A stretch of DNA of 63,751 nt, counting the filler. It is 11 parts of 11 records of this genome, joined end to end, with 100 filler letters (N's around TTAATTAATTAA, not from the genome) between each part and the next. Parts side by side here need not be neighbours in the genome. Positions count along the whole stretch, not along the records: positions 45,597 to 51,632 come from SRR7504441_14366; 10 more parts are not named here. One strand, given 5' to 3'. Below the pieces are notes generated by a model. The model searched no databases, was not told the origin of the DNA, and saw only the letters and a list, made by a program, of their open reading frames with translations. Below, piece by piece: positions 4,559 through 60,552 of this stretch. Made by a program: the position numbers and the translations under genes. Position 1 is the stretch's first letter. Each line of letters starts with the position of its first letter.

Positions 4559-4658
4559 NNNNNNNNNNNNNNNNNNNNNNNNNNNNNNNNNNNNNNNNNN
4601 NNTTAATTAATTAANNNNNNNNNNNNNNNNNNNNNNNNNNNNNNNNNNNNNNNNNNNN
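4559..4658. other. Artificial contig-joining spacer (N-run/TTAATTAATTAA/N-run, 100 nt)
   Basis: An identical six-frame-stop linker also occurs at 13095-13194, 21949-22048, 28195-28294, 36751-36850, 41034-41133, 45497-45596, 51633-51732, 55857-55956 and 60124-60223. Confidence 0.98.
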
Positions 4659-13094: not shown

Positions 13095-13194
13095 NNNNNN
13101 NNNNNNNNNNNNNNNNNNNNNNNNNNNNNNNNNNNNNNTTAATTAATTAANNNNNNNNNNNNNNNNNNNNNNNNNNNNNNNNNNNNNNNNNNNN

Positions 13195-19100: not shown

Positions 19101-21948
19101 ATGCTCCAGCGAACTAGTTCAAACGAAGATTTAAAGTACCCAGATCGTATATGCAACTTTATCTCGGAAGCAGCCCGAGCACTTGACACAGCCGCAGCCT
19201 TGGTGTTTCCTACGCCGAGCAACGAGTTGGAGTTTAAACTAGAGAACACGGTTTCTTTGATCTTGCTGGACTCTAGCGACTCCGCCAGTAAAGACGTGCT
19301 TTTGTTTCATCGCATGATCGGCGCTACCCCTTCACGGGAGAATTGTCTTTTCTGTGACAATGCTGAGGTCTCGTTTGCTGACGTTGAGCATTTGTTACTG
19401 CGTTGGTCTTGTGCTGGCAACTTTGGGAGAGGTCAGATTTATTCGATTGTTTCTTGCCATGTTCTATCTTTCGAAGAACAGTCTATCCTAGCTGAAAAGG
19501 TGTACAAATGGAAGAAATGTACAGCCGCCAAGTTGGCTCTTTTTGCTGTCAATGATTGCACAATTGCATCAGAGTTTGAAGACTCAGTTTTGGACATTTT
19601 GCCTGCAGGTGTTGAGCAGATCCGTGAATTCTCACAGGCCCAGCACGGTGTCCGCATCATCCGCTCTTGCCATGCAGGCATCTCTGCGACGCCAATGATT
19701 ATTACTGAGGTCTGCGTTTGTTAGGTGGTGGCAAATCGTTTCATGTCCGACATTTTGCGTTCTCTGTTGGCCTAAAATATGTTCATTGCCCAGTCAACCG
19801 AACAATGACAGCCAGTGAGGTCATCCAGGCCATACAACCCTGTTGTGCCCAACCTGAGGATGGGGCTTTGTTATTGCACATCGATCTGGCGCATCAAATC
19901 GACGAGTCGTTCGACTGGCTTCTGCGCGACTGTGTCTTTTTTGGCAGCGTTCTGGATGCTTCCGGCGGCGCCTTTGTGCTTCCTTTAAATCCTTGTCAGG
20001 TGATTGTCGAGGTTGCTTCTGGAGCATCCATCGAGCGCTCATCAATCATCAATCTCCTCGCGCCAGTACCAGACTTTCGAACAGGAGCGAAGCTAGAGAT
20101 GTGCACATCAGTGAGAGCACTGGCAGCTGGTGGACATGCAGGCGCGTCCTCGAAAGGTTACTGCTGTCATCAGCAGCTACAATATGTTTGTTTTGCACTC
20201 AGTATACTCGAACGGGGTTACTTTGGTGTAGGGTCACGAGTTTCTGTGGCCCAGAAAAAGAGTGGCTTCAGGGCAGCCCATGTCACCAGAGTTGAAGGTC
20301 AAGTGGGGTTTTACTGCATCTACGAGGAGGATCAGCCGAATAACAAGACAGAACACTTTTTCATGTTCAAAGATCGCTCAGTGATAAAAAACGATAGCCC
20401 TGGATATTTTCCATCCCAATATTCGGGTCCGGCAGCGCATTCCGAGCTCGATGGTTACCAATGTTTCAGAATACTGCAGAAGTATTCATCAGAGGATAGC
20501 GGAGGACAGCAGGGAGCCGAGGCATCATTTTGGTCTCTTTGGATGTTTGTTGCCTTCTTACACCACCAGCTGCGAGAGATTGAGATCGAGACATCTCCTA
20601 TCGCCAAGATATGTGGTTCAAACGAGAGTCTCAAGTACGAATTTGTGAAATATCTCGTTCAGACTGCGCAAGAGTTTGCTGGTAATCAGATTGACATCAA
20701 CGGAAATCTCAAATCATGGGCCGCGTCTAGCCACGACTGTATTTTCTTTTCGAACGAAACATCTTCACTGCATTTTCTATCTCTGCATCCGAGTGCCATG
20801 CGTTCTCGAATGCCGCCAAAGTTGGTTTCCCTGTTGGACAATCTTGGCATCGCGGTAGGGCGTCCCCTTGCAGAGCTGAATAGGGAGTTCAGTGATATTA
20901 TAAGTGCGGTCACCGGTATCCAGCGCGGTCATGATGAGGCTAAATTCCTTCTCAAAGAACCTTTCGTCCTGACTGGTGATGGCATCATCAAACTCCTGGC
21001 CCTGGCGCAGCGCTTGCAGTATGGGATCCCTGTCGTGTTGATGGGAGAGTGTGGCTGTGGAAAAACGACTCTTGTCAAGTACCTTGCTGCCTGGCTCGCT
21101 GCACCGTTGGTCGTATTGGACGTCCATGGTGGTACAACTGAGGCTGAGATTCTGGAAACTTTCGGAAATGCAGCCTCACTGCTCCAGCAAACAGAGGCTA
21201 CGCGTGTATTGGTCTTTCTGGATGAATGCAATGCTGCTCCGCACATCGGACTTGTCACGGAAGCAGTGTGCCACCGGTCAATCAATGGCCAGCAGCTGAG
21301 GCCAGAGATTTGCGTGGTTTGTGCCTGTAACCCCTACCGCCGACGGACTGAGCAGGCCGCGGTGGCGTCTTCTGGACTGACCCCTGCAAGTGCACCATCC
21401 GCAGTATCTAGCGACTTGGATGGACTGGTTTATCGGGTCCACCCGCTATCGGCGACGCTGCGTTCTTTTGTTTTTGATTTCGGATCGCTCTCTCCTGAAC
21501 AAGAGCGCTCTTATCTGCAATTGATGATAAAGGCGCAGTTGCGTGATCTTCTTGAAAGCGATCAAGAGGTCATCTTGACCAGCGAACTTGTGGCTGCTTC
21601 TCAGACTCAGTTGCGAAATGTCCATTCGGAGCCAAGTGTGGTATCGCTAAGAGATGTCAAGCGGGTTATCAAATTGCTGCGGTGGTTTTCGGGGGTGGTC
21701 AGTTCAGGTACTCTTGGCGCAAATGTGAGGGCTCTCGTACTCGCTCTTAACCATGTGTATCGGCTACGTCTACCTACTCTGGCTGCGAGATCGGCATACT
21801 GGGAAATGGTACGAACCTCCCTCAAGAACGCGTCTGCCCGGACACCGCTGCCCTCCGGTGCGGGAGCACTGATTCCGGTGGGAAGACTGGAACAGGTAGT
21901 AGCTCAAGCTCAGCAGAGTATTGCGTCTCGGATGATTGTTGACGAGGG
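13195..21948 (+). CDS. RNF213/mysterin-like giant AAA+ ATPase with N-terminal NHL repeats; truncated at both ends
   Basis: About 11 short introns join all + ORFs into one frame. NHL motifs LFNTPRGI, VADQGNHQVR and LNRPVDIC. RNF213-like motifs AGGGKS (across GC-AG intron 19678-19724), GIPVVLMGECGCGKT, DVHGGTT, FLDECN, ACNPYR, LVYRVHPL, FDFGSLS and VSLRDVKR. Confidence 0.8.
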
Positions 21949-22048
21949 NNNNNNNNNNNNNNNNNNNNNNNNNNNNNNNNNNNNNNNNNNNNTTAATTAA
22001 TTAANNNNNNNNNNNNNNNNNNNNNNNNNNNNNNNNNNNNNNNNNNNN

Positions 22049-28153: not shown

Positions 28154-28407
28154 CCGACCCTTAGCCCGGGACCGGGGGGGGGGGGGGGGGGGAGNNNNNN
28201 NNNNNNNNNNNNNNNNNNNNNNNNNNNNNNNNNNNNNNTTAATTAATTAANNNNNNNNNNNNNNNNNNNNNNNNNNNNNNNNNNNNNNNNNNNNGTCGGG
28301 GCCCTAAGGCTCACATAACCTATATTCAAGATTTCATAATTTAATGGTCTAATTTAATAATAATTTAATAATACTAATCTTGAACCCTCCATACGAGCAT
28401 GTAATGA

Positions 28408-36750: not shown

Positions 36751-36882
36751 NNNNNNNNNNNNNNNNNNNNNNNNNNNNNNNNNNNNNNNNNNNNTTAATT
36801 AATTAANNNNNNNNNNNNNNNNNNNNNNNNNNNNNNNNNNNNNNNNNNNNCCCCCCCCCCCCCCTCCAAGCCTCACCCATAG

Positions 36883-41033: not shown

Positions 41034-41251
41034 NNNNNNNNNNNNNNNNNNNNNNNNNNNNNNNNNNNNNNNNNNNNTTAATTAATTAANNNNNNNNNNN
41101 NNNNNNNNNNNNNNNNNNNNNNNNNNNNNNNNNAGGTCCTGGGCCAGCTGTTCCTTGTCCGCCGCATCCCCCCATGTCCTCAACTGTCAGATGAGTGCCG
41201 TTACGAGTATTTAGTACTGAGCAGCACTGGATCGAGTACTACCAAGTACCG

Positions 41252-45496: not shown

Positions 45497-45596
45497 NNNN
45501 NNNNNNNNNNNNNNNNNNNNNNNNNNNNNNNNNNNNNNNNTTAATTAATTAANNNNNNNNNNNNNNNNNNNNNNNNNNNNNNNNNNNNNNNNNNNN

Positions 45597-45701
45597 AGAG
45601 GAGGTCTGGAAGTGAGTCGCAGCCACCTTGCCCGGCTGATCATATGCGGCCACGGCCACCCAACCGAGCCAAGCCAGCGCCACCCCCCAGGCCGGGCGCA
45701 T
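45597..45701 (-). CDS. N-terminal fragment of a secreted protein
   Basis: MRPAWGVALAWLGWVAVAAYDQPG is signal-peptide-like and runs into the gap. Confidence 0.4.
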
Positions 45702-46191
45702 TTTGGCCTTGCTTCTGAGAAAATCCCAACGGGTTCGACAAGGCCTTTCTACTTTTGCTTCTCCCAGTGGCCAGGGCGTGGGCCAGGGCTGCCGCCTGCA
45801 GGTGGCCTTCAATCATCGGGAACCGTCTATTCAGCGCCGACCACCAGGTGATAGCAAGCCCGGGTTAGCCCGGGTGAACGGAGGGGCGGTCCGAGGGCTT
45901 GGCCAGTGCATATCGCGCATGTGGCGCACGTGGCAACGGGCCGGCTGGTCGGATTGTGCACGCTTTGGGTCTCGGGGTGGGTGAACGGTAATGGGACAGT
46001 GGCAGGTGAGGTCGATGTCGAGCGGGTCGGCTCCAGCTCACATTTGTTGACTTGGATCGCGATCGGGAGACAGGATCATGCAACCATCTGCCGGCCGGGT
46101 CACCTTTGGCACTATGCGCGAGGCGGTATGATTATAATCAATGTCTAGTAGAGCAGGTTCTATAGACTGGGATTAGAGCGGATCTGTCAGC

Positions 46192-46866
46192 TCACTTGCC
46201 CCGCCAGATCTGTAGCTTGCCAAACCCGTTGTGCTCCACCAAGATTAGATCAGTAAACTCAACTGTCCCCGAAGGCTGCCCCCCGATCCTCTTGAGCCCG
46301 GGCAGCCCAGTGCCCGCCTCAGTCCGACGGTCCTGGGTCTGGTCCAGCAGCACACTCGATTCCGGCCGGAGCGCCACCCGGAAGCACATGAGCGTCCCAC
46401 CGTCGGGGCCCGAGGCGCAAACGTCGAAACTGCCAGTCTCCTGCTCGCTCACCTCGTACTCGCCGCACTTGTCCGCCCATCGGAACCAGCGGTAGCTCCC
46501 GTCCGCTCGCAGGTCCAGCCGGGCCCCGGCGCCAAAGTGCCCGTCAGCGCAGGTAAGCGAGGCCCAGCCCCGGAATAATCTATCCTGCCGCGCCTGTCTC
46601 TGGTCGGGCGAGCGAGCCGGAGAGCCGGTCCGCTGGGCCTGCGCGCACCCGGCCACGAACTCGGCTAGGTCCAGATGGCCGTCCTTGTCGGTATCGAGCC
46701 GATCGAACACTTGCCGCCAGTCCAATCCGACGGCCCCCCACAGCCTGCGGTAGGTCTCCGCCCGCGGGCCGGCAAGCGCCCGGCGGAGCTCGTGCGGGGC
46801 GATCAGCCCGTCCTTGTCCTCGTCCATCAGCGTGAAGAGCTCGACCACCACCGGATGTGCCTGCAT
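46192..46866 (-). CDS. EF-hand pair protein
   Basis: Canonical loops DEDKDGLIAPHE and DTDKDGHLDLAE, followed by a beta-rich domain. Confidence 0.8.
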   Translation of the reverse strand: MQAHPVVVELFTLMDEDKDGLIAPHELRRALAGPRAETYRRLWGAVGLDWRQVFDRLDTDKDGHLDLAEFVAGCAQAQRTGSPARSPDQRQARQDRLFRGWASLTCADGHFGAGARLDLRADGSYRWFRWADKCGEYEVSEQETGSFDVCASGPDGGTLMCFRVALRPESSVLLDQTQDRRTEAGTGLPGLKRIGGQPSGTVEFTDLILVEHNGFGKLQIWRGK

Positions 46867-46945
46867 TTTCGGAATATCCCGGTGGCCCGAGCCGGAGGAA
46901 AGTCGTTACTTGCTCACCGCAACGCGGATCGTGGCTTTTGGCAGA

Positions 46946-49900
46946 ATGGACTGGGAGGTGGAGATGCTGGACACGCCCAAGGGCAAGCGGCCGGCCAAGC
47001 CCAGCGGCCGGCCAAGCCCAGCGGCCAAGCCCAGCGGCCGGCCGGCCAAGCCGACGTCGCACAAGTTGGCCCAGCACCGGGCCCGGTGCCAGTCCGCCCG
47101 CGAATTGAACCGGCAGCGTTCGCTCGACCGGGACCGGAGCAGCTCGGAGGCTCTGCTGGTAGCCATGCAGGCCGGCGGGGAGATCCCGGACAGCCGGCCG
47201 GTGGTTTGCTACCTGGACGAGCTGGGGGACGAGCCGCAGGGCGAGCCCGAACTAAAAGTGCGGCAGGGCGAGTGGGGGCGGGAGTTGGGACTGGGCGGGC
47301 TGGGTCTGGCGACGGTGCCCGAGGCGGTGGATCAGCTGGCGGTGGATAGTCTGGACTTGGCCAACAACCGGCTGGAGCGACTGCCGGACGGGCTGTGGCA
47401 ACGGATCCAGCCGGCACAGCTGCTGCTCCACTGCAATCAGATCGAGGAGCTCCCTATGGGCCCGCCGCCGGTGGAATTGCGGGCGCTCACGCTGAATCAG
47501 AACCGGCTGAGCGACGTGAGCAGGCTGTGCCACAGCAGCTGCGGGCTGACGGCGCTCAATCTGTGCAGCAACCAGCTGCAGGTGCTGCCGGAAGAGATTA
47601 GCCTGCTCAGCGGGCTAGTGAACCTCAACGTCGGTGCCAACAGGCTGAGAGATCTGCCCTCACAACTGCCGGCTCAGCTGCAGCAGCTGCACGCCGCGGA
47701 TAACTCGATAGGTCCCGAGCTGCCAGCAGGGGTGGGCCAGCTCGCGCAGCTCACCTTGCTGAACATGGCCGGCAATAGGATCGAGAGTGTGCCTCCAGGA
47801 GCGATTGAGGGGCTCGATGTGGTGCATACGCTCAATCTCAACCGGAACCGGCTCCAAGGACTGCCTGGTGGGCTGGCCCGGCTGCAACGTCTGCAGCGGC
47901 TGCTGCTGGCGGACAACTGGTGCCTGACGAGCCTGCCAGCAGAGCTTGCTGAGACTGAGCACAAGATTGGCTGCATTGCGTGCCACAGGAACCGCTCCAT
48001 GCGCTTCCCGCCGGCTGATGTGGCCGAGCAGGGCGCAGCAGCTATCTACAGGTTTCTGGACCAGGCGCGGAGTGACCAAAGGCAAGCACTGGTGCTGCCT
48101 GGGCCACAGCTAGTAGTGGTTGGGGCGGACAGTGTAGAAAGACAAGCGCTGGTCTCGTCATCAATGTGTGACGAGGGCGTGGAGGTATGGAGCACGCCGC
48201 AGCTCGGACCTGCCGAGGCGGAAGGTGAGCGGCCAGAGCCGTTCTGCTTGCAGGAGTCTGCACTGCCAGTATCCAGTCCCGGCTGCCTGGAGCCACTCTG
48301 CTGGCCAGGCCAGCCAACCGCTTTTGTGATGTTTAGTGACACCGAGATGGAGGCTGAGCAGTGGTTAGAGCTGCTGCAGGACAAATCACCGGGTTGCCTG
48401 GTGCAACCAGTCTGTCTTGGTCCTGAGGAGCGTGGTGTGGCCATCAATCGAGCCCTGGCGCTGGCCGAAGCAAGGCGGGTGAGTGTGCTGCAGCGGGCGC
48501 TCAGGCATTCCGATAGCACGGGGAATGCCTCGCATTATAGCCAGCTGCAACGCCAGTTGAGCGCCAGACCGAGTATTAAACCCGCATGCTGCCTAAATAG
48601 CAGCACGGAGGAGACTGCCTGGCGATTCCAACAGCTACTAGAGCAGCTTGGCTCTCCAGATTCGCCGCAGCCTGAGGTATGAGCCAATGCGTGCCGTGCC
48701 AACGGTTGGACAGGTGCCTCTCTCTTGGCTGATGGTCCGAGACCAGTTAAAGCAGCAAGCCTGGCGGCCCGTATGGCCACAGCCGGAGCTTGAGCAGTGC
48801 TGCGTGGGCGAGTTGAATGTGGCTGTGCCTGTTGAGATTGGGCTGACTGGTTTGCCAGGTGGTGAGGGACACAATCGAGTTCATGCACCGGGCGGGCGAG
48901 CTGCTGCTGCTGTCCGGGCTGGTGGTGCTGGACTTGCCTGTGCTGTGCGGGTGGGTGGAGCAGCTACGGCCTGACAGGCTCGACGAGTCCATGGGAGCTA
49001 TTCAGTCAAGTCTTGAGGGCACAGCTCAGTCAGCCGAGCTGCACCAGCGGGGCTGGGCCCGGCTGAGCCTGCTGCGGAGCAAGGGACTCTACCACAATAG
49101 TTTGTCAAGCCTACTCTGCCCAAAGCAGCTCGCCAAGTCTGGGCTAACCAGCCAAGAATTTGACTCGCTCGTGCGTGCTGCAGCGGTTCATCTCGAGGTG
49201 TCAGCTGCCCCACATCGCGCCTAAGCTACTGGGCAGGTCGGTCTACCGTGGGACCCGGACCATCTTGTGCTGCCAGACCAGCTTCGCACAGCGGTACAAC
49301 CCGCGCTGCCGGGGAGCATGACGATCCATTTCGAGATGGAGGCATTACCATCCAGACCGACCAGGCTGCTGCTCTTGCTTTGCAACAAGTGCACCGACCG
49401 CCTCGAGTCGCTCAACCGCCAGGCCGGGACCCAAGTTGTACCGACTGCCGTGTGGCAGCGGTCTGTGCTGTTTGGGTGCGCCAGCTCCAAGGTGGTGATC
49501 CAGCTGCGGCTGCTGGAGCGCAAGCCAGGGTGGGTGCTTGAGCTCGCGGGGAGCAGCCCAGAGCTGTCACAGCAGCAGCTACAGCTAGTGCTTGGCGGGT
49601 TAGCTGATACTGTCCCGCTCAGCTTGTCAGCGCAGGGGTGGAATGCACAAGTGAAAGGTGCCCGTGCTAAGCTTAAATGCCTGTTTTGACGTGCGGGGCA
49701 GCGGTGTGGGTGCATTGCCCGGATTGCTTGCGTGACCGGGGAGAGCTGGTGCCAATGGACAGAGCGGAGCTGATTTGCAAGGCTGCCGCGGGGGAGGGTT
49801 CAGTCCTCTGTGAGAACAGATGCTGGTTGAGTCTGGACCAGTTGCTGCTGCGCAGCCCACACCGGGAGGCGGCTGTGCGGCAGGGGACGGTCAGGCTAGC

Positions 49901-50691
49901 ACTGTGGGACAAGAGCACCGGTACAGCTCGTCGGCTGTGTTCCGGGTTTGTTGCAGATCCTGCCCACGGGCTGCTGGTCACGGCAGCGCATCTGATCCAT
50001 GCCCCACCTGACCCAAACAAGGGTCGATCGGACTGGCTCGAGTTCAACGGGCTGGACCCGGGGTCGATTTCGATCCTGGTAGCGGTCTTTGTAGGATTGG
50101 AGGCGCCGACCGAGTGGAGGTTTGTGGCCGAGGTTGCGCAACTGGGATCTCCCCGCGAGGACTCTTTCGTGGATGCATGCGTTCTGCGCGTGACGCACGA
50201 GTTCGCCAACCCATGGTCAGCCAGCCGAGGAGATGGCAGCTCCCCTGTGATTACCCCTCGTGATGTGCTCGAGGGCGCTCAGCGGCCTCTCACAGGCCCT
50301 CTGCCGCTGCCGTGCTTGCCGGTGCGCCCCCGCGCTGGCAGACTCACTGAGTGGCGGGCAGTTGGGGGACTCTGAGCTGGTGCGGATCACTGAGTGCATG
50401 CAGCTCTGTGGTTATCCGGGGGACGGGGCAGCCAATTCGATCTGTGTGTCGACGGGATGGGTGATGCAGTTCCACGAAGGGCTGATCGTGCTATCAAACT
50501 ATCAAATGAGAGGCAGCTCCGGTGGCCCGGCGGTGTCGACTACCGGCCGAGTGGTCGGGGTGCTCAGCAAGGGGAGCACGGGTGCAGCTCATCTGGTCAA
50601 GATCAATTCGATCAAACCAATGCTCGAGATGGCTCGGCACACTGTCGGCAATGGCTCGGCCTCGGCAACTGCCGTCCTTAAGATTGATTAA
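46946..50691 (+). CDS. Roco-like protein: LRRs - degenerate ROC - COR - Cys cluster - trypsin/HtrA-like serine protease
   Basis: About 9 SDS22/PIRL-type LRRs; post-LRR FPPADVAEQGAAAIYRFL; COR-like VPLSWLMVRDQL, EFMHRAGELL, VVLDLPVLCGWV and VWQRSVLF. Protease CSGFVAD..GLLVTAAH, DACVLRV, LPLGDS..GYP and GSSGGPAV..GRVVGV. Five 37-44-nt GT-AG introns join the frame. Confidence 0.75.
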
Positions 50692-50768
50692 CGATGCCAC
50701 AATAAAAAAAATCCTGAATTCGATTATATTTTTAACGTTCGGAGCAATAAGGTCTGCCTGACAACGAG

Positions 50769-51631
50769 CTAGAATTTAGTGGATGAGGAGTGGCCTGAGC
50801 TTAGTCTTGTGAACTCATCCATCGACGCCTCCATTGCGTCACAATACTTACCAATCCAAGCCTCCAATCCGATCTTCGGCTCGACCGGTTCGGCCCCGAA
50901 CCAGTCGCTCGCGTGTTCCTTCATCACCGGTGGAGTGAGCCCCCAGCTGTCTAGCGTGGCACGAGGATCATACTTGTCGCCCTCAGCACCGTTCGGGAAT
51001 AAAACTCGAGCCACCAGCTGCTCCTCGTGCTCGCCCCCGTCCATCACCGCCTGCAGCCAGGCCAGCACATCCGCCCGCCCGACCAGCATATCCTTGTCGG
51101 TGTCCACTCGGGCGAACACCTGCTTCCCCTTCTCGCTCCAACTGCCAGCCCTGCCCCCGCGGTCAGGCCCGCCGCCCCGTCCGCACCGCACCGCATGGCG
51201 GTCAGAAACTTCTCGTTCTCGCGCACCAGGCAGTCATCGAGCGCGTGCACCCGCCAGAGCAGCATCCGGGTATGATCCGTCACCTCCTCCCAGCTGCGCT
51301 CCCCGGCCACGGACGAAAAGAATCCCACAAACTCGAGCTGCCCAACCGCCGTGCCACCGTCGCCGTAGTACCTGCGCAGCTGGGAGGATAGTGTCTCCCC
51401 GAGCTCGTGCCCATGCAGGTCTATCGCGCCGCTGCCGTTGCCGTCCAGCCGGTCGAACACCCATTGAAGGTACGAGCGCTGGGTGGCTGTGGCGGGGTGT
51501 TGCTTCCAGCCGTGCCGCAGCTGCAGCTCAAGCAGCTGGCCCTGGGCGGCTACCTCGGCCGGATCGGGCCTCAGTCCCTCGGCCGAGGTGGTCGAGTCCT
51601 CCTCCAGGCACTGGGTGGCGCATATCCCCAT
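50769..51631 (-). CDS. EF-hand protein with predicted N-terminal acylation (MGICAT)
   Basis: VFDRLDGNGSGAID and VFARVDTDKDMLVGRAD; one 41-nt GT-AG intron (~51149-51189). Confidence 0.7.
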
Positions 51632-52085
51632 GNNNNNNNNNNNNNNNNNNNNNNNNNNNNNNNNNNNNNNNNNNNNTTAATTAATTAANNNNNNNNNNNN
51701 NNNNNNNNNNNNNNNNNNNNNNNNNNNNNNNNATGCCGTACGCGGCCAACCGCCTGCATGGCCCCCCTCCCCCCAGCCGGCGGCCGCCCCGGGGCTGGCC
51801 GGCGGGTGGCCCGCCGTCGAGCCTGGCGCAGGTGGAACCCTCTGTCGGCCGAGGGTATGGCGTTGGACTCCTGGCCGGTGGCGGCACACTCAACCCTCCT
51901 CGGGTGCGCGCGCGCCGCTGGGCTTGGCCGCTTAGCGGCCGCGTAATGGCTGCTGGGGCTGGGGCCGGCCGGGTGAGCGCGGGCTCAGGACAAGAAGCGC
52001 AAGCTGGCTCCCGGCGACACCTTCGAAGACTCGGAGGTAGCACGCCCGCCGTTACCCGGGTCGCGTGCTGTCTTGCGCGCCGCCA

Positions 52086-55000
52086 ATGGCCGAATCGGCG
52101 GCTGGGGGCGAGCTGGCGGGCCAGGTGTACCCTCGAGAGGTCGGCCCGCTCGAACCGTCCCAGCGGCTGGTCCCGATCGACACTGGCAACGTCACATACT
52201 CGCTGCAGGCTCCGAGCGCCCGGCAGGCCCGATTTCTGAGCCGCGCGCAGGTGCCTCAATTCTTTGATGGCGAAACGGTCGGCGACTTTCTAGCCAAGGT
52301 GCCTGCAGCCCGCCCCGGCTGAGCTGACAGCCGTGTGTGCAGGCCAGAGAGGACCAGCCGGGTGTCGACGGATGCCGGCGCCGGCCTCTGATAGAGCTGC
52401 AGGTCCGGACCTTCCGCGCGCCGTGAGTGCGATGGACTCGTCGGCTTGGCTCACCCAGGCCGAGCTGGTGCGCGCCGGCCGGCTGCGGTGGTCGAGCGGG
52501 CGGCAGGCGCGGCTCGACAGCAAGCAGGTAGAGCTGCAGCGACAGGACAAGAAGAGGCAGATTTCAGTGGAGTTGCGCGGCGCGATACGAGAGCGATGGG
52601 TCAAGGCGGGTGGGCGGTCCGGGCCCGGCTGAGTGTGGTGCAGATGGGGCGGATCGAGATCCCGAGGCTCCGGAGGGTCACGCTAGACGCTCGAGCGAAT
52701 CACGTGACGAATGGGAGGAAGATGGCGATACTGTGCCAGAAAGAGATCCGTAAGCGGCTACAGAAGAGCTCAAAGGCCTGGCGGGAGGCGCCGATGCGGG
52801 CCAGGAGGCTGGCGAGGGAGGTGATGACCTTCTGGCGGAGGCACGATAAGGAGGCAACCGAGACCAAGAAGAAGGCGGAGAAAGAGGAGGTGGAGAGGCT
52901 CAAAAGGGAAGAGGAGATACGCGAGGCTAAGCGGCAGCAGATGAAGCTCAACTTCCTGCTGACGCAGACCGAGCTCTATTCGCACTTTATCGCCAAGAAT
53001 ACGACGGATCGTGGCGACGCCTTGCCTATGATGGTGGGGAATCGAGCGGAGCAGAAGACGGGGATCCGATCGATTGACGAGGAGTTTGACCAAGCCGCCA
53101 TGGAGAAGCGGGCGGCGCTGGCGGCCCAGCAGCACATCAGGGCCAACCACGAGCGCGTGGATGAATTTGATTTGGCCAAGAGAGGCCAGTCGCTGCACCC
53201 GACGCTTACGGGCCCTGGTGCTGGCGGAGCCAAGCGGCCCAAAATAGACGTGAGCCAGCTGGACACGGACAAGGTTTTGATGGAGCCCCAGTCGTTCGGT
53301 GAAGACGAGATCGAAGTGACCCAGCCTAAGATGTTCAAAGGGCAGCTCAAAGAGTACCAGATCAAGGGCCTCAAGTGGCTCGCCAACCTGCACGAGCACG
53401 GGATCAATGGAATTCTGGCCGACGAGATGGGTCTGGGCAAGACAGTCCAGGCGATCGCGCTGCTCACATACCTAGCTGAGGCCAAGAACTCGTGGGGCCC
53501 GTTCCTTGTGATTGCGCCGGCCTCGACGCTGCACAACTGGCAACGGGAGATCTCGAGGTTCGCGCCAGAGTTCAGGATTTTGCCCTACTGGGGGAGCCAG
53601 AGGGATAGGAAGACCCTCCGGAAGGACTTCAATTTCCGGGGGGTGTACACCAAGGACGCGCCTTTCCACATAGTTGTGACGTCGTACCAGCTGCTCGTGA
53701 CTGATGAGAAATACTTTCACAGGCACCGGTACGAGTTCATGGTGCTTGATGAGGCTCAGGCGCTCAAAAGCTCCAACTCGATTCGGTGGAAAACCCTGCT
53801 CGGATTCAATTGCAGGAACCGGCTGCTGCTCACAGGAACCCCGATCCAGAACTCTATGGCAGAGCTGTGGGCGTTGCTGCACTTCATCATGCCGACGCTG
53901 TTTGACAACCACGAGGAGTTTAACGAGTGGTTCTCGAAAGATATCGAGAACCACGCCTCGTCGGGCGGCAGCTTGAACGAGCATCAGCTCAAGCGGCTGC
54001 ACATGATCATCAAACCGTTCATGCTCCGCCGAGTGAAGAAGGACGTCGAGTCCGAGATGGCAGAGAAAGTGGAGATCCAGCTGCTGTGCGAGATGACCCA
54101 GCGGCAGCGAACGCTCTACAAGGGCATCCGGGAAAACATATCTTTCGAGGAATTGTTTGACACGATGGCGACTGGCTCTGACGACAAGCGCCGGTCTTTG
54201 ATGAATTGGGTGATGCAGTTCCGCAAGGTGTGCAACCATCCTGAGATCTTTGAGCGCCGTGATACCGTCTCTCCTTTCCTGTGTAACGACTTGCATGCCA
54301 AGCTCAGTGACAACAGGCCTCCGAACACCAACTACAAGACAACCTCACTAGTCCCACTCTCCGCCCGGTCCTGTATCTGCTACCCAACCCCCAGGCTCGT
54401 GTGGGGGTGTGCTCATGGTGCTCCAGACGGCACCATCAGCGGTCAGTGCAAGCTGCTCGCTGTCACGCTCTCTCTTTGGACTGCTGCCCAGCTGCACGCT
54501 GACAGGCCTGGCTGGGCTGGGATTCTACAGCAATCGACTGGGGCTGTGGCACAAATCGGGCAGAGCTGCGGGCCTGAGCGGGTGCAGCATGCGATTGGCG
54601 CCAGGACCCGCAGGCTGCGGCTGTGTGGGTATCTGCCGGCGGGCATGGACGAGGTCGTGCTGGGCAGGCGGGTCGAGCTCGAGCAATCGGCGCTGGGTGA
54701 GGGTCCGCAGCATTGGTGGCTGCCCCAGCACGTCAGCCTGATCCAGCTGCTCCACACAGCCTATTGTCCCGCAGCGGCGGCCCCGCTGGTGGACGCAATC
54801 TGCATGGAGCCGTCGTTCAGGCCGCGTACTGCCGAGCCGGCACTAGCGCGACAGCTCGTGCTCGGGAGCAGCTGGGAGCAAGCGTCAGTGGAGGCGCAGC
54901 TCGACGCCGCAGTGGCCGGCGAGCTTCTGCCATCCCAGCTGCAGGCGGCGGTGCGCAGTGGGCTGGAGTTGGAGAGCACTCTGCGCGGGCGGGGGTTGGG

Positions 55001-55856
55001 GCGAGAGGCTGAGGAGTTTAGAGATCAGATTTGCCGGGCGGCCACAAGTAGTCAGGACGGGGCGGGTGGGCTGGTGGGGCCGGTGATCGCAGCGGAGGGG
55101 CAGCACTTGAGGATCCTTGTTCCTGACTATGGGAAGCTCGTGACTGATAGCGGCAAGCTGACAGTGATGGATGGGTTGCTGACTAAGCTCAAGCAACAGC
55201 AGCACCGAGTTCTGGTGTTCTGCCAGATGACCAAGATGATGGACATTCTGGAGGATTTCCTCACCTACCGCAAGCACAGCTACGTCAGACTGGACGGCTC
55301 CTCCAACCTGGCCGACAGGCGGGACATGGTCGAGGCGTTCCAGACCCGCGAGGATATCTTCGTGTTTCTGCTCTCGACTCGGGCCGGGGGTCTGGGTATC
55401 AACCTGACTGCTGCAGACACAGTGATCTTCTATGACAACGATTGGAACCCGACCCAGGACGCGCAGGCGATGGACCGGACACACCGGATAGGCCAGACCA
55501 AGCAGGTGACTGTTTACCGTCTGGTGACCAAGGGCACTGTCGAGGAGCGGATCCTGCTCCGGGCACAGCAGAAGGACACGATCCAGCAGACTGTGTACGC
55601 AGGCAACCTGAAGAACGAGTCCGGGCCCAAGAGGACCGAGGCGGAGGAGATGGCTTCGCTGCTGGTGGGCGACGAGGAGTTGGAGCGCAAGCTGCGCGAG
55701 CAACGGAAGAAGAAGAAGGAGAGCAAAGAGAAGGAGAAGCGGGCCAAGCAGGGCAATCAGATGGCTGAGCCTCCGGCCAAGAAGCCCAAGCTGGAAACAG
55801 ACACAAAGCCTGCAGCCGAGCCTGCAGCCGAGCCCGCGGCCGAGCCCGCGGCCGAG
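52086..55856 (+). CDS. INO80: INO80 chromatin-remodelling ATPase, 3'-truncated
   Basis: DBINO motif REAKRQQMKLNFLLTQTELYSHFI; GILADEMGLGKTVQ, LDEAQALKSS, MQFRKVCNHPE, split-ATPase insertion, DSGKL, LLSTRAGGLGINLTAAD, QAMDRTHRIGQ. 5' exons are joined by short introns incl. GC-AG 52606-52643; exact 5' model uncertain. Confidence 0.95.
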
Positions 55857-56044
55857 NNNNNNNNNNNNNNNNNNNNNNNNNNNNNNNNNNNNNNNNNNNN
55901 TTAATTAATTAANNNNNNNNNNNNNNNNNNNNNNNNNNNNNNNNNNNNNNNNNNNNGGAGAGTGGGAGGTGGGAGAATTATGACTATCCCTGTCTACAGT
56001 GTACACCTTCCGTTATTAGGTGGGAACGGAAGAAACAGCGCACG

Positions 56045-60088: not shown

Positions 60089-60552
60089 CACCGGCCAGTG
60101 GGCGCGGGGGGGGGGGGGGGGGGNNNNNNNNNNNNNNNNNNNNNNNNNNNNNNNNNNNNNNNNNNNNTTAATTAATTAANNNNNNNNNNNNNNNNNNNNN
60201 NNNNNNNNNNNNNNNNNNNNNNNAAGTTGAGTATCTGGAGTCGATCCGTGGTGTTTGGATGCACCGATCCCGTGCGGGCGGCGTGCTTCTCGAAGTCGGC
60301 AAAGTCGTATCCGCTCTCGGCCGCATTGGAGCGGAAGATAGAATGGCCAACTCATCATCGCAATAAACGGTCTAGCTACTCGTAATCGCTCGAGTTCACG
60401 AATGCGATCCTTAGCTGAAGCAGCTCACGGCGGCTGGGTCCGTATCAGGGCAGGCTTGTCCTCCTTTTGTGACAGCAGTTGAATCGATTCCAACTCAGTG
60501 GATGGGTGGGTGGCTAGGTGGCACGCTCGCTCGCTGCCGGTACCGAGGCTGA

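Follow-up and report, generated by a model that had tools for sequence, protein, structure and literature searches.

A probable Roco-family derivative from a marine protist with a putative pseudo-GTPase centre and a C-terminal serine protease

Research on Roco proteins has been driven mainly by LRRK2 and Parkinson's disease. How the GTPase cycle of the Roc domain, dimerisation through the COR domain and the output domain are coupled to each other is still debated, and the text of the review on these proteins names neither a protease nor a caspase nor a peptidase (Wauters et al., 2019, PMC6337361). In bacteria, LRR-AP-GTPase(Roc)-COR proteins have been described which combine fast-evolving leucine-rich repeats (LRRs) at the N-terminus with at least 24 different C-terminal effectors, trypsin and caspase among them, and which are predicted to be counter-invader systems (Kaur et al., 2021, eLife, PMC8195603). 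Equally, the three genes of ROCO group 3 in brown algae encode a peptidase domain (IPR009003) at the C-terminus, ROCOs ending in a peptidase are also found in other organisms of the SAR lineages (stramenopiles, alveolates and Rhizaria) and have been proposed as candidate immune receptors, and the COR domain (PF16095) has been detected in just 18 of 111 ROCO genes (Teng et al., 2024, Front Plant Sci, PMC11378527). Here, we describe a gene of six exons on the plus strand of one contig within a 63,751-nucleotide stretch of DNA, called the window throughout, that is composed of joined contigs. From its spliced sequence, the gene would probably encode a cytosolic derivative of the Roco family consisting of LRRs, a Roc domain without the G1, G3 and G4 motifs, a COR-A domain, a COR-B domain with a four-cysteine site and a serine protease with an intact catalytic triad.

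As an architecture, LRR-Roc-COR-protease is already known, from bacteria in the account of Kaur et al. (2021) and from SAR in the account of Teng et al. (2024), and the first-pass annotation of the window, which did not recognise it as characterised, is corrected on this point by these two publications (PMC8195603; PMC11378527). With the SAR peptidase ROCOs, as far as they are portrayed there, the gene shares its eukaryotic nature, the multiple exons and the order LRR, ROC, weakly detectable COR and C-terminal peptidase; those proteins were, however, recognised through a detectable ROC domain, whereas the Roc segment of the present gene is invisible to Pfam and devoid of G motifs. With the bacterial LRR-AP-GTPase-COR-effector proteins, as described, it has the module order LRR, Roc, COR and variable effector in common, trypsin being one of the effectors listed. 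In contrast to the gene in the window, which is eukaryotic, possesses spliceosomal-type introns, has an eroded G domain and has a eukaryotic homologue, the bacterial proteins display intact GxGxxGKT, DxxG and NKxD motifs and often occur in multiple copies with different effectors per genome. The classical Rocos, such as LRRK1/2, DAPK1, MFHAS1, the Dictyostelium Rocos and CtRoco, resemble it in the Roc-COR tandem behind LRRs with COR as a dimerisation device, but are reviewed as having functional G domains that cycle GTP and a kinase, a death domain or none as output (Wauters et al., 2019). The iSTAND/iSTAND2 and NLR-type proteins equally combine a repeat sensor and an eroded NTPase centre with trypsin-like peptidase effectors, with the difference that, in the descriptions given, their centre is a STAND ATPase and not a Ras-like GTPase (Kaur et al., 2020, 2021). 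As neither NACHT nor NB-ARC is found by Pfam in any exon or in the homologue, the NLR/STAND reading was ruled out.

Two elements are apparently new: that a conserved and selected eukaryotic Roco-protease has its G motifs fully eroded, and that the architecture is present in a telonemid-like lineage. A dead-switch version of LRR-Roc-COR-protease seems undescribed so far; in a literature search that did not extend to the supplementary tables of Kaur et al. (2021) and Teng et al. (2024), nothing was found that pairs a Roco protein with a pseudo-GTPase, and a search for Roc, COR, CHAT domain and leucine-rich repeat together gave nothing either.

Removal of five canonical introns, as put forward in the first-pass annotation, does yield one frame. 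The introns are of the GT..AG type, 37-44 nucleotides (nt) in length, and their excision results in a single open reading frame (ORF) of 1181 codons plus stop, starting with the ATG at 46946 and ending with the stop codon at 50689-50691, directly followed by AATAAA; before splicing, the six exon segments sit in different frames. GGGCAG forms the 3' end of three out of five, and each intron has a branch-like CTGAC, TTGAC, CTAAG or CCAAC 12-18 nt upstream. The best support for this gene model is comparative. The Roc-position piece (window 48038-48676) served as query in a full HMMER search against 1.84 billion representative proteins, two of which matched at E <= 0.001. One is P0002 (951 amino acids (aa), E 8.4e-11), the product of a Trinity-assembled Telonema subtile transcript (EukProt). 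The other match was dismissed as spurious: P0003 (E about 1e-3), a Kelch-repeat protein of bacterial origin. The spliced window protein and the Telonema protein are identical at 317 of 852 aligned positions (37%), with no indel at any of the five exon junctions. Within one ORF, the Telonema protein begins in the last LRR and continues through a likewise degenerate Roc position and COR into the Cys cluster and the protease; a longer isoform, P0005, shows that the transcript is 5'-truncated. Since P0002 is a single transcript ORF, the middle region, the Cys cluster and the protease share one mRNA in the relative.

Near-identical contigs of the gene were found in four environmental runs. Among the 34 exonic variant entries listed, which represent the best-supported variants with 6 others left out, 26 are synonymous and 8 non-synonymous, and 25 are located at codon position 3. 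With the variants mostly synonymous or at codon position 3, purifying selection acts on the predicted frame in exons 1, 3, 4, 5 and 6. We read it as a genuine nuclear gene, of the expressed type, from a marine protist.

At both ends of the protein the domain assignment is straightforward. In exon 1, LRR_8 matches with E 4e-17 in five stretches, LRR_4 and LRR_1 also match (Pfam), and LRR effector models of NCBIfam cover residues 112-340. At the C-terminus, the Trypsin_2 profile (PF13365) is split over two exons: exon 5 covers its positions 1-60 with 16.5 bits, and exon 6 covers 72-144 with 26.7 bits. Each half alone is below the gathering score of 27.6, the two halves are complementary, and the uninterrupted homologues exceed the threshold, with 39.5 bits for the Telonema protein and 43.2 bits for the stand-alone protease P0001 described below. 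The residues H962 (TAAH), D1023 (DACVL) and S1125 (GSSGGP) stand in this order in all three family sequences (window, P0002 and P0001), and the early assertion that His, Asp and Ser are all present is thereby borne out. The nearest sequences in the PDB are the staphylococcal Jep, V8 and Spl S1B proteases (9s74, 1wcz, 2as9; E 0.003-0.05, C-terminal half only), and in V8 and Jep the motif with the catalytic Ser lines up with Ser1125; placement of the protease in subfamily S1B is tentative. Unlike the protease domain here, these are secreted, stand-alone enzymes, and the matches are weak. From the initial designation as trypsin/HtrA-like, Trypsin_2 and the PA clan stand. The HtrA-like (S1C) part was ruled out, as no PDZ domain was found by Pfam and the best PDB matches are the S1B proteases V8, Spl and Jep; Deg9 appears in the PDB sequence search at E 0.7-2 only. 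The InterPro entry of the brown-algal peptidase, IPR009003, is presumably that of the PA-clan S1 peptidases.

Further searches for relatives were conducted with different parts of the gene. The sole match to exon 5 in a word-index search is P0001 (504 aa, JGI metagenome), which aligns with the spliced protein through junction 5 (E 3e-20) and shares the motifs ALWDKS...GSGFVAD...TA(A/N)H...DACVL with the window protease. Its N-terminus consists of 240 aa of Asn/Ser-rich low complexity. P0001 is without LRR or COR, and the protease family therefore occurs outside the Roco context as well. The brown-algal proteins were recovered neither by the HMMER search with the Roc piece, with P0002 as the family match, nor by the word-index search with exon 5, which gave P0001 only. 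The word-index search with the Roc region, restricted to longer proteins, gave 0 matches among 1724 candidates, and with residues 60-660 of P0002 just P0002 itself among 7999 scored candidates. Nothing was found with exon 5 in JGI metagenomes, or in GTDB genomes scanned with the LRR region and with the protease alignment; tblastn of P0002 against plasmid records gave no match at E <= 0.01, and within the window the gene has no paralogue. Four JGI metagenome loci (L001-L004) obtained with the protease alignment as query were set aside as generic proteases, with similarity restricted to the protease's C-terminal half (28-35% identity).

The identity of the middle region is the more demanding question, and here the evidence is one of remote homology. 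A template profile was built from the Roc-COR regions of eight bacterial Roco proteins from plasmid records, in all of which Pfam detects Roc, COR-A and COR-B, with 79-98 bits for Roc (PF08477). With a hidden Markov model (HMM) of these eight regions, ranks 1 and 2 of 403 sequences, 400 of which are shuffles, go to the window protein and to P0002, at 2.9 and 2.4 bits respectively, and in both species the match falls on the motif at the start of COR-A (lPksWlkvkekL vs VPLSWLMVRDQL). The COR-A-like region of the window protein opens with VPLSWL and contains FMHRAGELLLLSGLVVLD. Aligned as a pair to the bacterial profile by hhalign, the window protein and P0002 score 34.1 (P 0.0019) and, with the Cys cluster added, 35.2 (P 0.0015) over template columns 6-465 of 472; the COR-B-like region lies within this colinear full-length alignment, which runs up to template column 465. 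Out of 150 column shuffles, none reaches the real score (mean 15.4, standard deviation 2.7, maximum 24.9), the reversed query gives 20.0 and, of 17 real ORF pieces taken from the window as controls, 16 give 11.6-17.5 with the same profile. More telling than the whole-region score is the domain-wise test, in which the COR query scores 28.9 against the COR template (60 shuffles, maximum 20.9) and the Roc query 24.2 against the Roc template (P 0.006; 60 shuffles, maximum 19.5), the crossed pairs giving background (13.3 and 14.6). Taken by itself, COR-A reaches 28.6 (P 0.0027), and it does so at template columns 167-321, which is the right position; the P values belonging to the COR scores of 28.6-28.9 are 0.003-0.004. 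Furthermore, the nearest named clusters of the Roc piece in the ESM Atlas are Ras/Roc/Arf GTPases (0.87-0.89), and ranks 2-4 for exon 3 are COR-A clusters (0.88), scores below 0.9 counting as leads only. Taken by these alignments, Roc-COR homology of the middle region is likely, but remote and without confirmation of the fold. The predicted succession of LRR, ROC position, COR-like motifs, Cys cluster and protease can thus be retained in its order and, by Pfam, in its LRR and protease parts; for the Roc-COR part, remote similarity is what was found.

At the position of the P-loop (G1), where the bacterial proteins have GxGxxGKT, the window protein reads GADSVERQ and the Telonema protein GGCSEQHT, neither of which has GK[ST]. 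The bacterial switch II WDFGGQE faces a deletion in the window protein and CWEDWSVQ in Telonema. At the positions aligned with the bacterial profile, G1, G3 (DxxG) and G4 (NKxD) are absent from both proteins, in agreement with the earlier observation on the window alone that the P-loop position lacks GKS/T and that no WDxxG is visible. As it is common to two proteins of just 37% identity, the loss of the G motifs is old. Among the variants listed, three of the eight non-synonymous environmental changes affect residues 395 and 397 in the P-loop position, a pattern to be expected of a site that has ceased to bind phosphate; changes outside this position are mostly synonymous. At the nucleotide level, the P-loop variants at 48129-48135 are D395G and, on one contig, two adjacent base changes in the codon of residue 397. 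The Roc segment is probably a pseudo-GTPase, a call that depends on the Roc alignment and hence on the weaker half of the homology evidence.

Cysteines 871, 874, 902 and 906, in the arrangement CxxC...CxxxC, are all kept in P0002 and probably constitute a zinc site. The cluster was originally listed as an element of its own, HCPDC..C..C; it aligns, however, to the PCxCxxC...C stretch with which COR-B ends in L005, L006 and L008, three out of the eight bacterial Rocos. These share their Cys-rich end with the present gene, and by this alignment the cluster is most likely the C-terminal part of COR-B rather than a separate module.

Several observations weigh against Roc-COR homology of the middle region and would favour a rather unlikely alternative, in which these 500 residues are a lineage-specific alpha/beta and helical scaffold unrelated to Roc-COR, the likeness being convergent or compositional and the protein an LRR-linker-protease. 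With exon translations and with the full-length Telonema protein, Pfam gives no Roc, Ras, Arf, COR-A or COR-B at E up to 1, and by phmmer neither the Roc piece nor exon 3 nor exon 4 matches any PDB sequence. The HMM bit scores of 2.9 and 2.4 are tiny, with the best shuffle at 1.6, and the hhalign probability is just 14-17%. The 17th control, the ORF of an AAA ATPase whose P-loop is genuine, reaches 38.1 on the Roc-COR profile, and because an unrelated P-loop ATPase attains this value, an hhalign score in the thirties alone is not family-specific. Nor is alignment length evidence, because hhalign at low mact aligns hundreds of columns of the controls too. COR-B alone remains at background (14.8), and the ESM Atlas similarities are leads. 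Equally, structure prediction has not provided a confident fold, although a COR or ROC fold match for this region had been singled out at the outset as a check of the prediction: AlphaFold2 modelling of P0002 as a single sequence gives a predicted local distance difference test (pLDDT) score of 34.3, too poor for a fold test, and of the Roc piece with a three-row alignment a pLDDT of 46.0 and a predicted template modelling score of 0.39, with a best Foldseek E of 0.012 to generic alpha/beta folds and none at E <= 0.001. As only one homologue exists in the libraries searched, no deeper alignment was available for folding. An unrelated scaffold does not, on the other hand, agree with the behaviour of the Roc and COR parts, each of which matches its own template only and scores above all 60 shuffles, nor with the HMM match to the start motif of COR-A in two species, the ESM Atlas neighbours of two separate pieces that fit Roc and COR-A respectively, the alignment of the Cys cluster with the Cys-rich end of bacterial COR-B, and the order of LRR, Roc, COR and effector, which is that of the known family. 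The outcome of this check is thus divided: nothing from Pfam, a domain-specific signal from hhalign and an AlphaFold monomer that is too poor to judge.

If the middle region is accepted as Roc-COR, the Roc domain could still act as a switch that binds GTP, another nucleotide or a ligand through non-canonical residues. A strand-helix core around the P-loop position is retained in the low-confidence AlphaFold2 model, and both species have a basic residue at the position of the Lys (Arg399 in the window protein, His in Telonema). This option is nevertheless improbable, since G1, G3 and G4 are all gone in both species despite just 37% identity, the window protein, compared with P0002, has a deletion where G3 would lie, and the P-loop position tolerates D395G and changes of V397 among the environmental variants. 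Another alternative, still less probable, concerns the gene model: if intron 4 is normally kept, an LRR-pseudoRoc-COR protein ending at 49689 would be made and the protease would be a separate product, from an ATG at 49677 that opens the downstream frame, or untranslated. Confirmation of the junctions by RNA, the check named in the first-pass annotation, was not obtained. The RNA cover of the gene is partial and consists of five short contigs from two RNA libraries, and no spliced read, contig or joint of this organism was seen on the gene among the RNA-library contigs. One contig of a poly-A metatranscriptome (49645-49808, depth 3.6) keeps intron 4 unspliced, which is the one observation counting against the gene model; it may stem from pre-mRNA, from intron retention or from DNA that the library contained. 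This contig has, however, just 13 nt left of the donor at its low depth, RNA libraries can contain DNA, and intron 4 resembles the other four in size and in its arrangement of GT, branch-like element and GGGCAG. Moreover, the protein of the Telonema transcript is uninterrupted at the junction of intron 4, and bacterial COR-B extends into the Cys cluster, which is encoded beyond this intron.

The coordinates of the gene and of other features in the window are compiled in Table 1.

Table 1. Features of the Roco-protease gene and of the remaining window; positions refer to the whole window.
Feature	Position	Strand	Basis or remark
Coding region, 6 exons and 5 introns, 1181 aa	46946..50691	+	frame reading; colinear with P0002
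Exons 1-6	46946-48676, 48714-48818, 48859-49197, 49237-49657, 49702-50321, 50362-50691	+	
Intron 1, 37 nt, phase 0, GT..AG	48677-48713	+	junction colinear with P0002
Intron 2, 40 nt, GT..AG	48819-48858	+	
Intron 3, 39 nt, GT..AG, in-frame TAA within	49198-49236	+	junction colinear with P0002
Intron 4, 44 nt, phase 1, GT..AG	49658-49701	+	
Intron 5, 40 nt, GT..AG	50322-50361	+	interrupts protease domain
Basic low-complexity N-terminus, residues 1-111, AKPSGRP-like repeats	46946..47278	+	no Pfam match
LRR domain, about residues 112-345	47279..47980	+	Pfam LRR_8, LRR_4, LRR_1; NCBIfam
Roc-position segment, probable pseudo-GTPase, about residues 385-571	48098..48658	+	hhalign, ESM Atlas
P-loop (G1) position, GADSVERQ	48122..48145	+	aligned to bacterial GxGxxGKT
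COR-A-like region, residues 572-725, end of exon 1, exons 2 and 3	48659..49197	+	HMM, hhalign, ESM Atlas
COR-B-like region, residues 726-915, exon 4 and start of exon 5	49237..49850	+	colinear hhalign alignment
Four-Cys cluster CxxC...CxxxC (C871, C874, C902, C906), probable zinc site	49716..49823	+	conserved in P0002
PA-clan (Trypsin_2) serine protease, about residues 926-1160	49881..50625	+	Pfam halves; P0002, P0001
Catalytic codons His962, Asp1023, Ser1125	49989-49991, 50172-50174, 50518-50520	+	alignments
EF-hand gene, two ORFs needing one small intron	50772-51631	-	neighbour on same contig
Second EF-hand ORF	46192-46905	-	
Long uninterrupted ORF, DBINO, SNF2 and Helicase_C, INO80-type chromatin remodeller	52395-55856	+	different contig
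AAA/AAA_5 ATPase ORF, hhalign control	19709-21948	+	matches via genuine P-loop; other contig
Spacers 1-5	4559-4658, 13095-13194, 21949-22048, 28195-28294, 36751-36850		
Spacers 6-10	41034-41133, 45497-45596, 51633-51732, 55857-55956, 60124-60223		

The eleven contigs of the window, which are probably those of a binned assembly, are joined by ten spacers of one and the same sequence (N44-TTAATTAATTAA-N44) that has stops in all six frames, and long poly-G or poly-C runs occur at several contig ends. The host contig of the gene spans 45597-51632, and nothing else in the window is physically linked to it. In the low-complexity N-terminal region of the gene, a short tandem repeat at 46985-47050 codes for the AKPSGRP-like units. 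In the neighbouring EF-hand gene, a candidate intron at 51191-51151 (41 nt) with GTGCG...CTGAC...GGGCAG is built like the introns of the Roco-protease gene. ORFs with MAM, NHL and LCAT domains are present on other contigs, and these together with the INO80-type remodeller confirm that the contig set is eukaryotic.

Among the bacterial Rocos, L005:5848-10455 on plasmid pNsp_j of Nostoc sp. ATCC 53789 encodes a protein of 1535 aa with the Pfam succession LRR-Roc-COR-A-COR-B-CHAT, hence a caspase-like protease output, is annotated merely as 'leucine-rich repeat domain-containing protein' and has PIN toxin genes on both sides. It is an example of the LRR-AP-GTPase-COR-effector proteins of Kaur et al. 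(2021) and a precedent for a Roco with a protease as output. An LRR-Roc-COR gene on a Photobacterium toruni plasmid (L010:2781-5519), located between tniB plus a helix-turn-helix gene and tniQ and csy2, seems to be located within a Tn7-like type I-F CRISPR-associated transposon. In Nostoc UHCC 0926 (L009:1824-5312), a MoxR ATPase gene stands ahead of the one for the Roc-COR protein, as in the ternary systems described by Kaur et al. (2020), and in Haliscomenobacter (L011:2199-5324) a Roco that ends in EAD11 adjoins macro-domain and BREX (brxC) genes.

With the Roco-family derivative as the preferred reading, a mode of action can be envisaged in which the LRRs would bind a ligand or partner, while the pseudo-Roc-COR region would no longer cycle GTP and would instead provide a fixed scaffold on which the protein dimerises. 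Rearrangement or oligomerisation driven by the ligand, or proximity, might then switch on the protease domains, and the active domains would cut downstream targets. This would be a sensor-scaffold-executioner logic like that predicted for the bacterial LRR-AP-GTPase-COR-effector proteins, and a role of the receptor in defence or cell death is plausible only by analogy with these and with the brown-algal candidate receptors. A more far-reaching proposition, which we put forward with considerable reserve, is a nucleotide-independent Roco, a long-standing pseudo-GTPase of a telonemid-like lineage in which Roc-COR would serve purely as the structural hub, for dimerisation or oligomerisation, that links LRR sensing to a proximity-activated S1 protease. 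If true, this protein would be a eukaryotic, GTPase-derived counterpart of the inactive-STAND (iSTAND) immune scaffolds and would represent an experiment of nature on Roc-COR function without GTP.

A Roco without GTP-binding motifs and with a catalytically complete protease, conserved and selected in two distant protists, would, if the assignment is correct, mean that Roc-COR can work as a pure scaffold, and proteolysis would offer a simple read-out for studying activation mediated by COR. Equally, the sensor-switch-protease architecture would be extended from bacteria and brown algae to a telonemid-like lineage, which would be relevant to the spread of immune and cell-death modules among eukaryotes.

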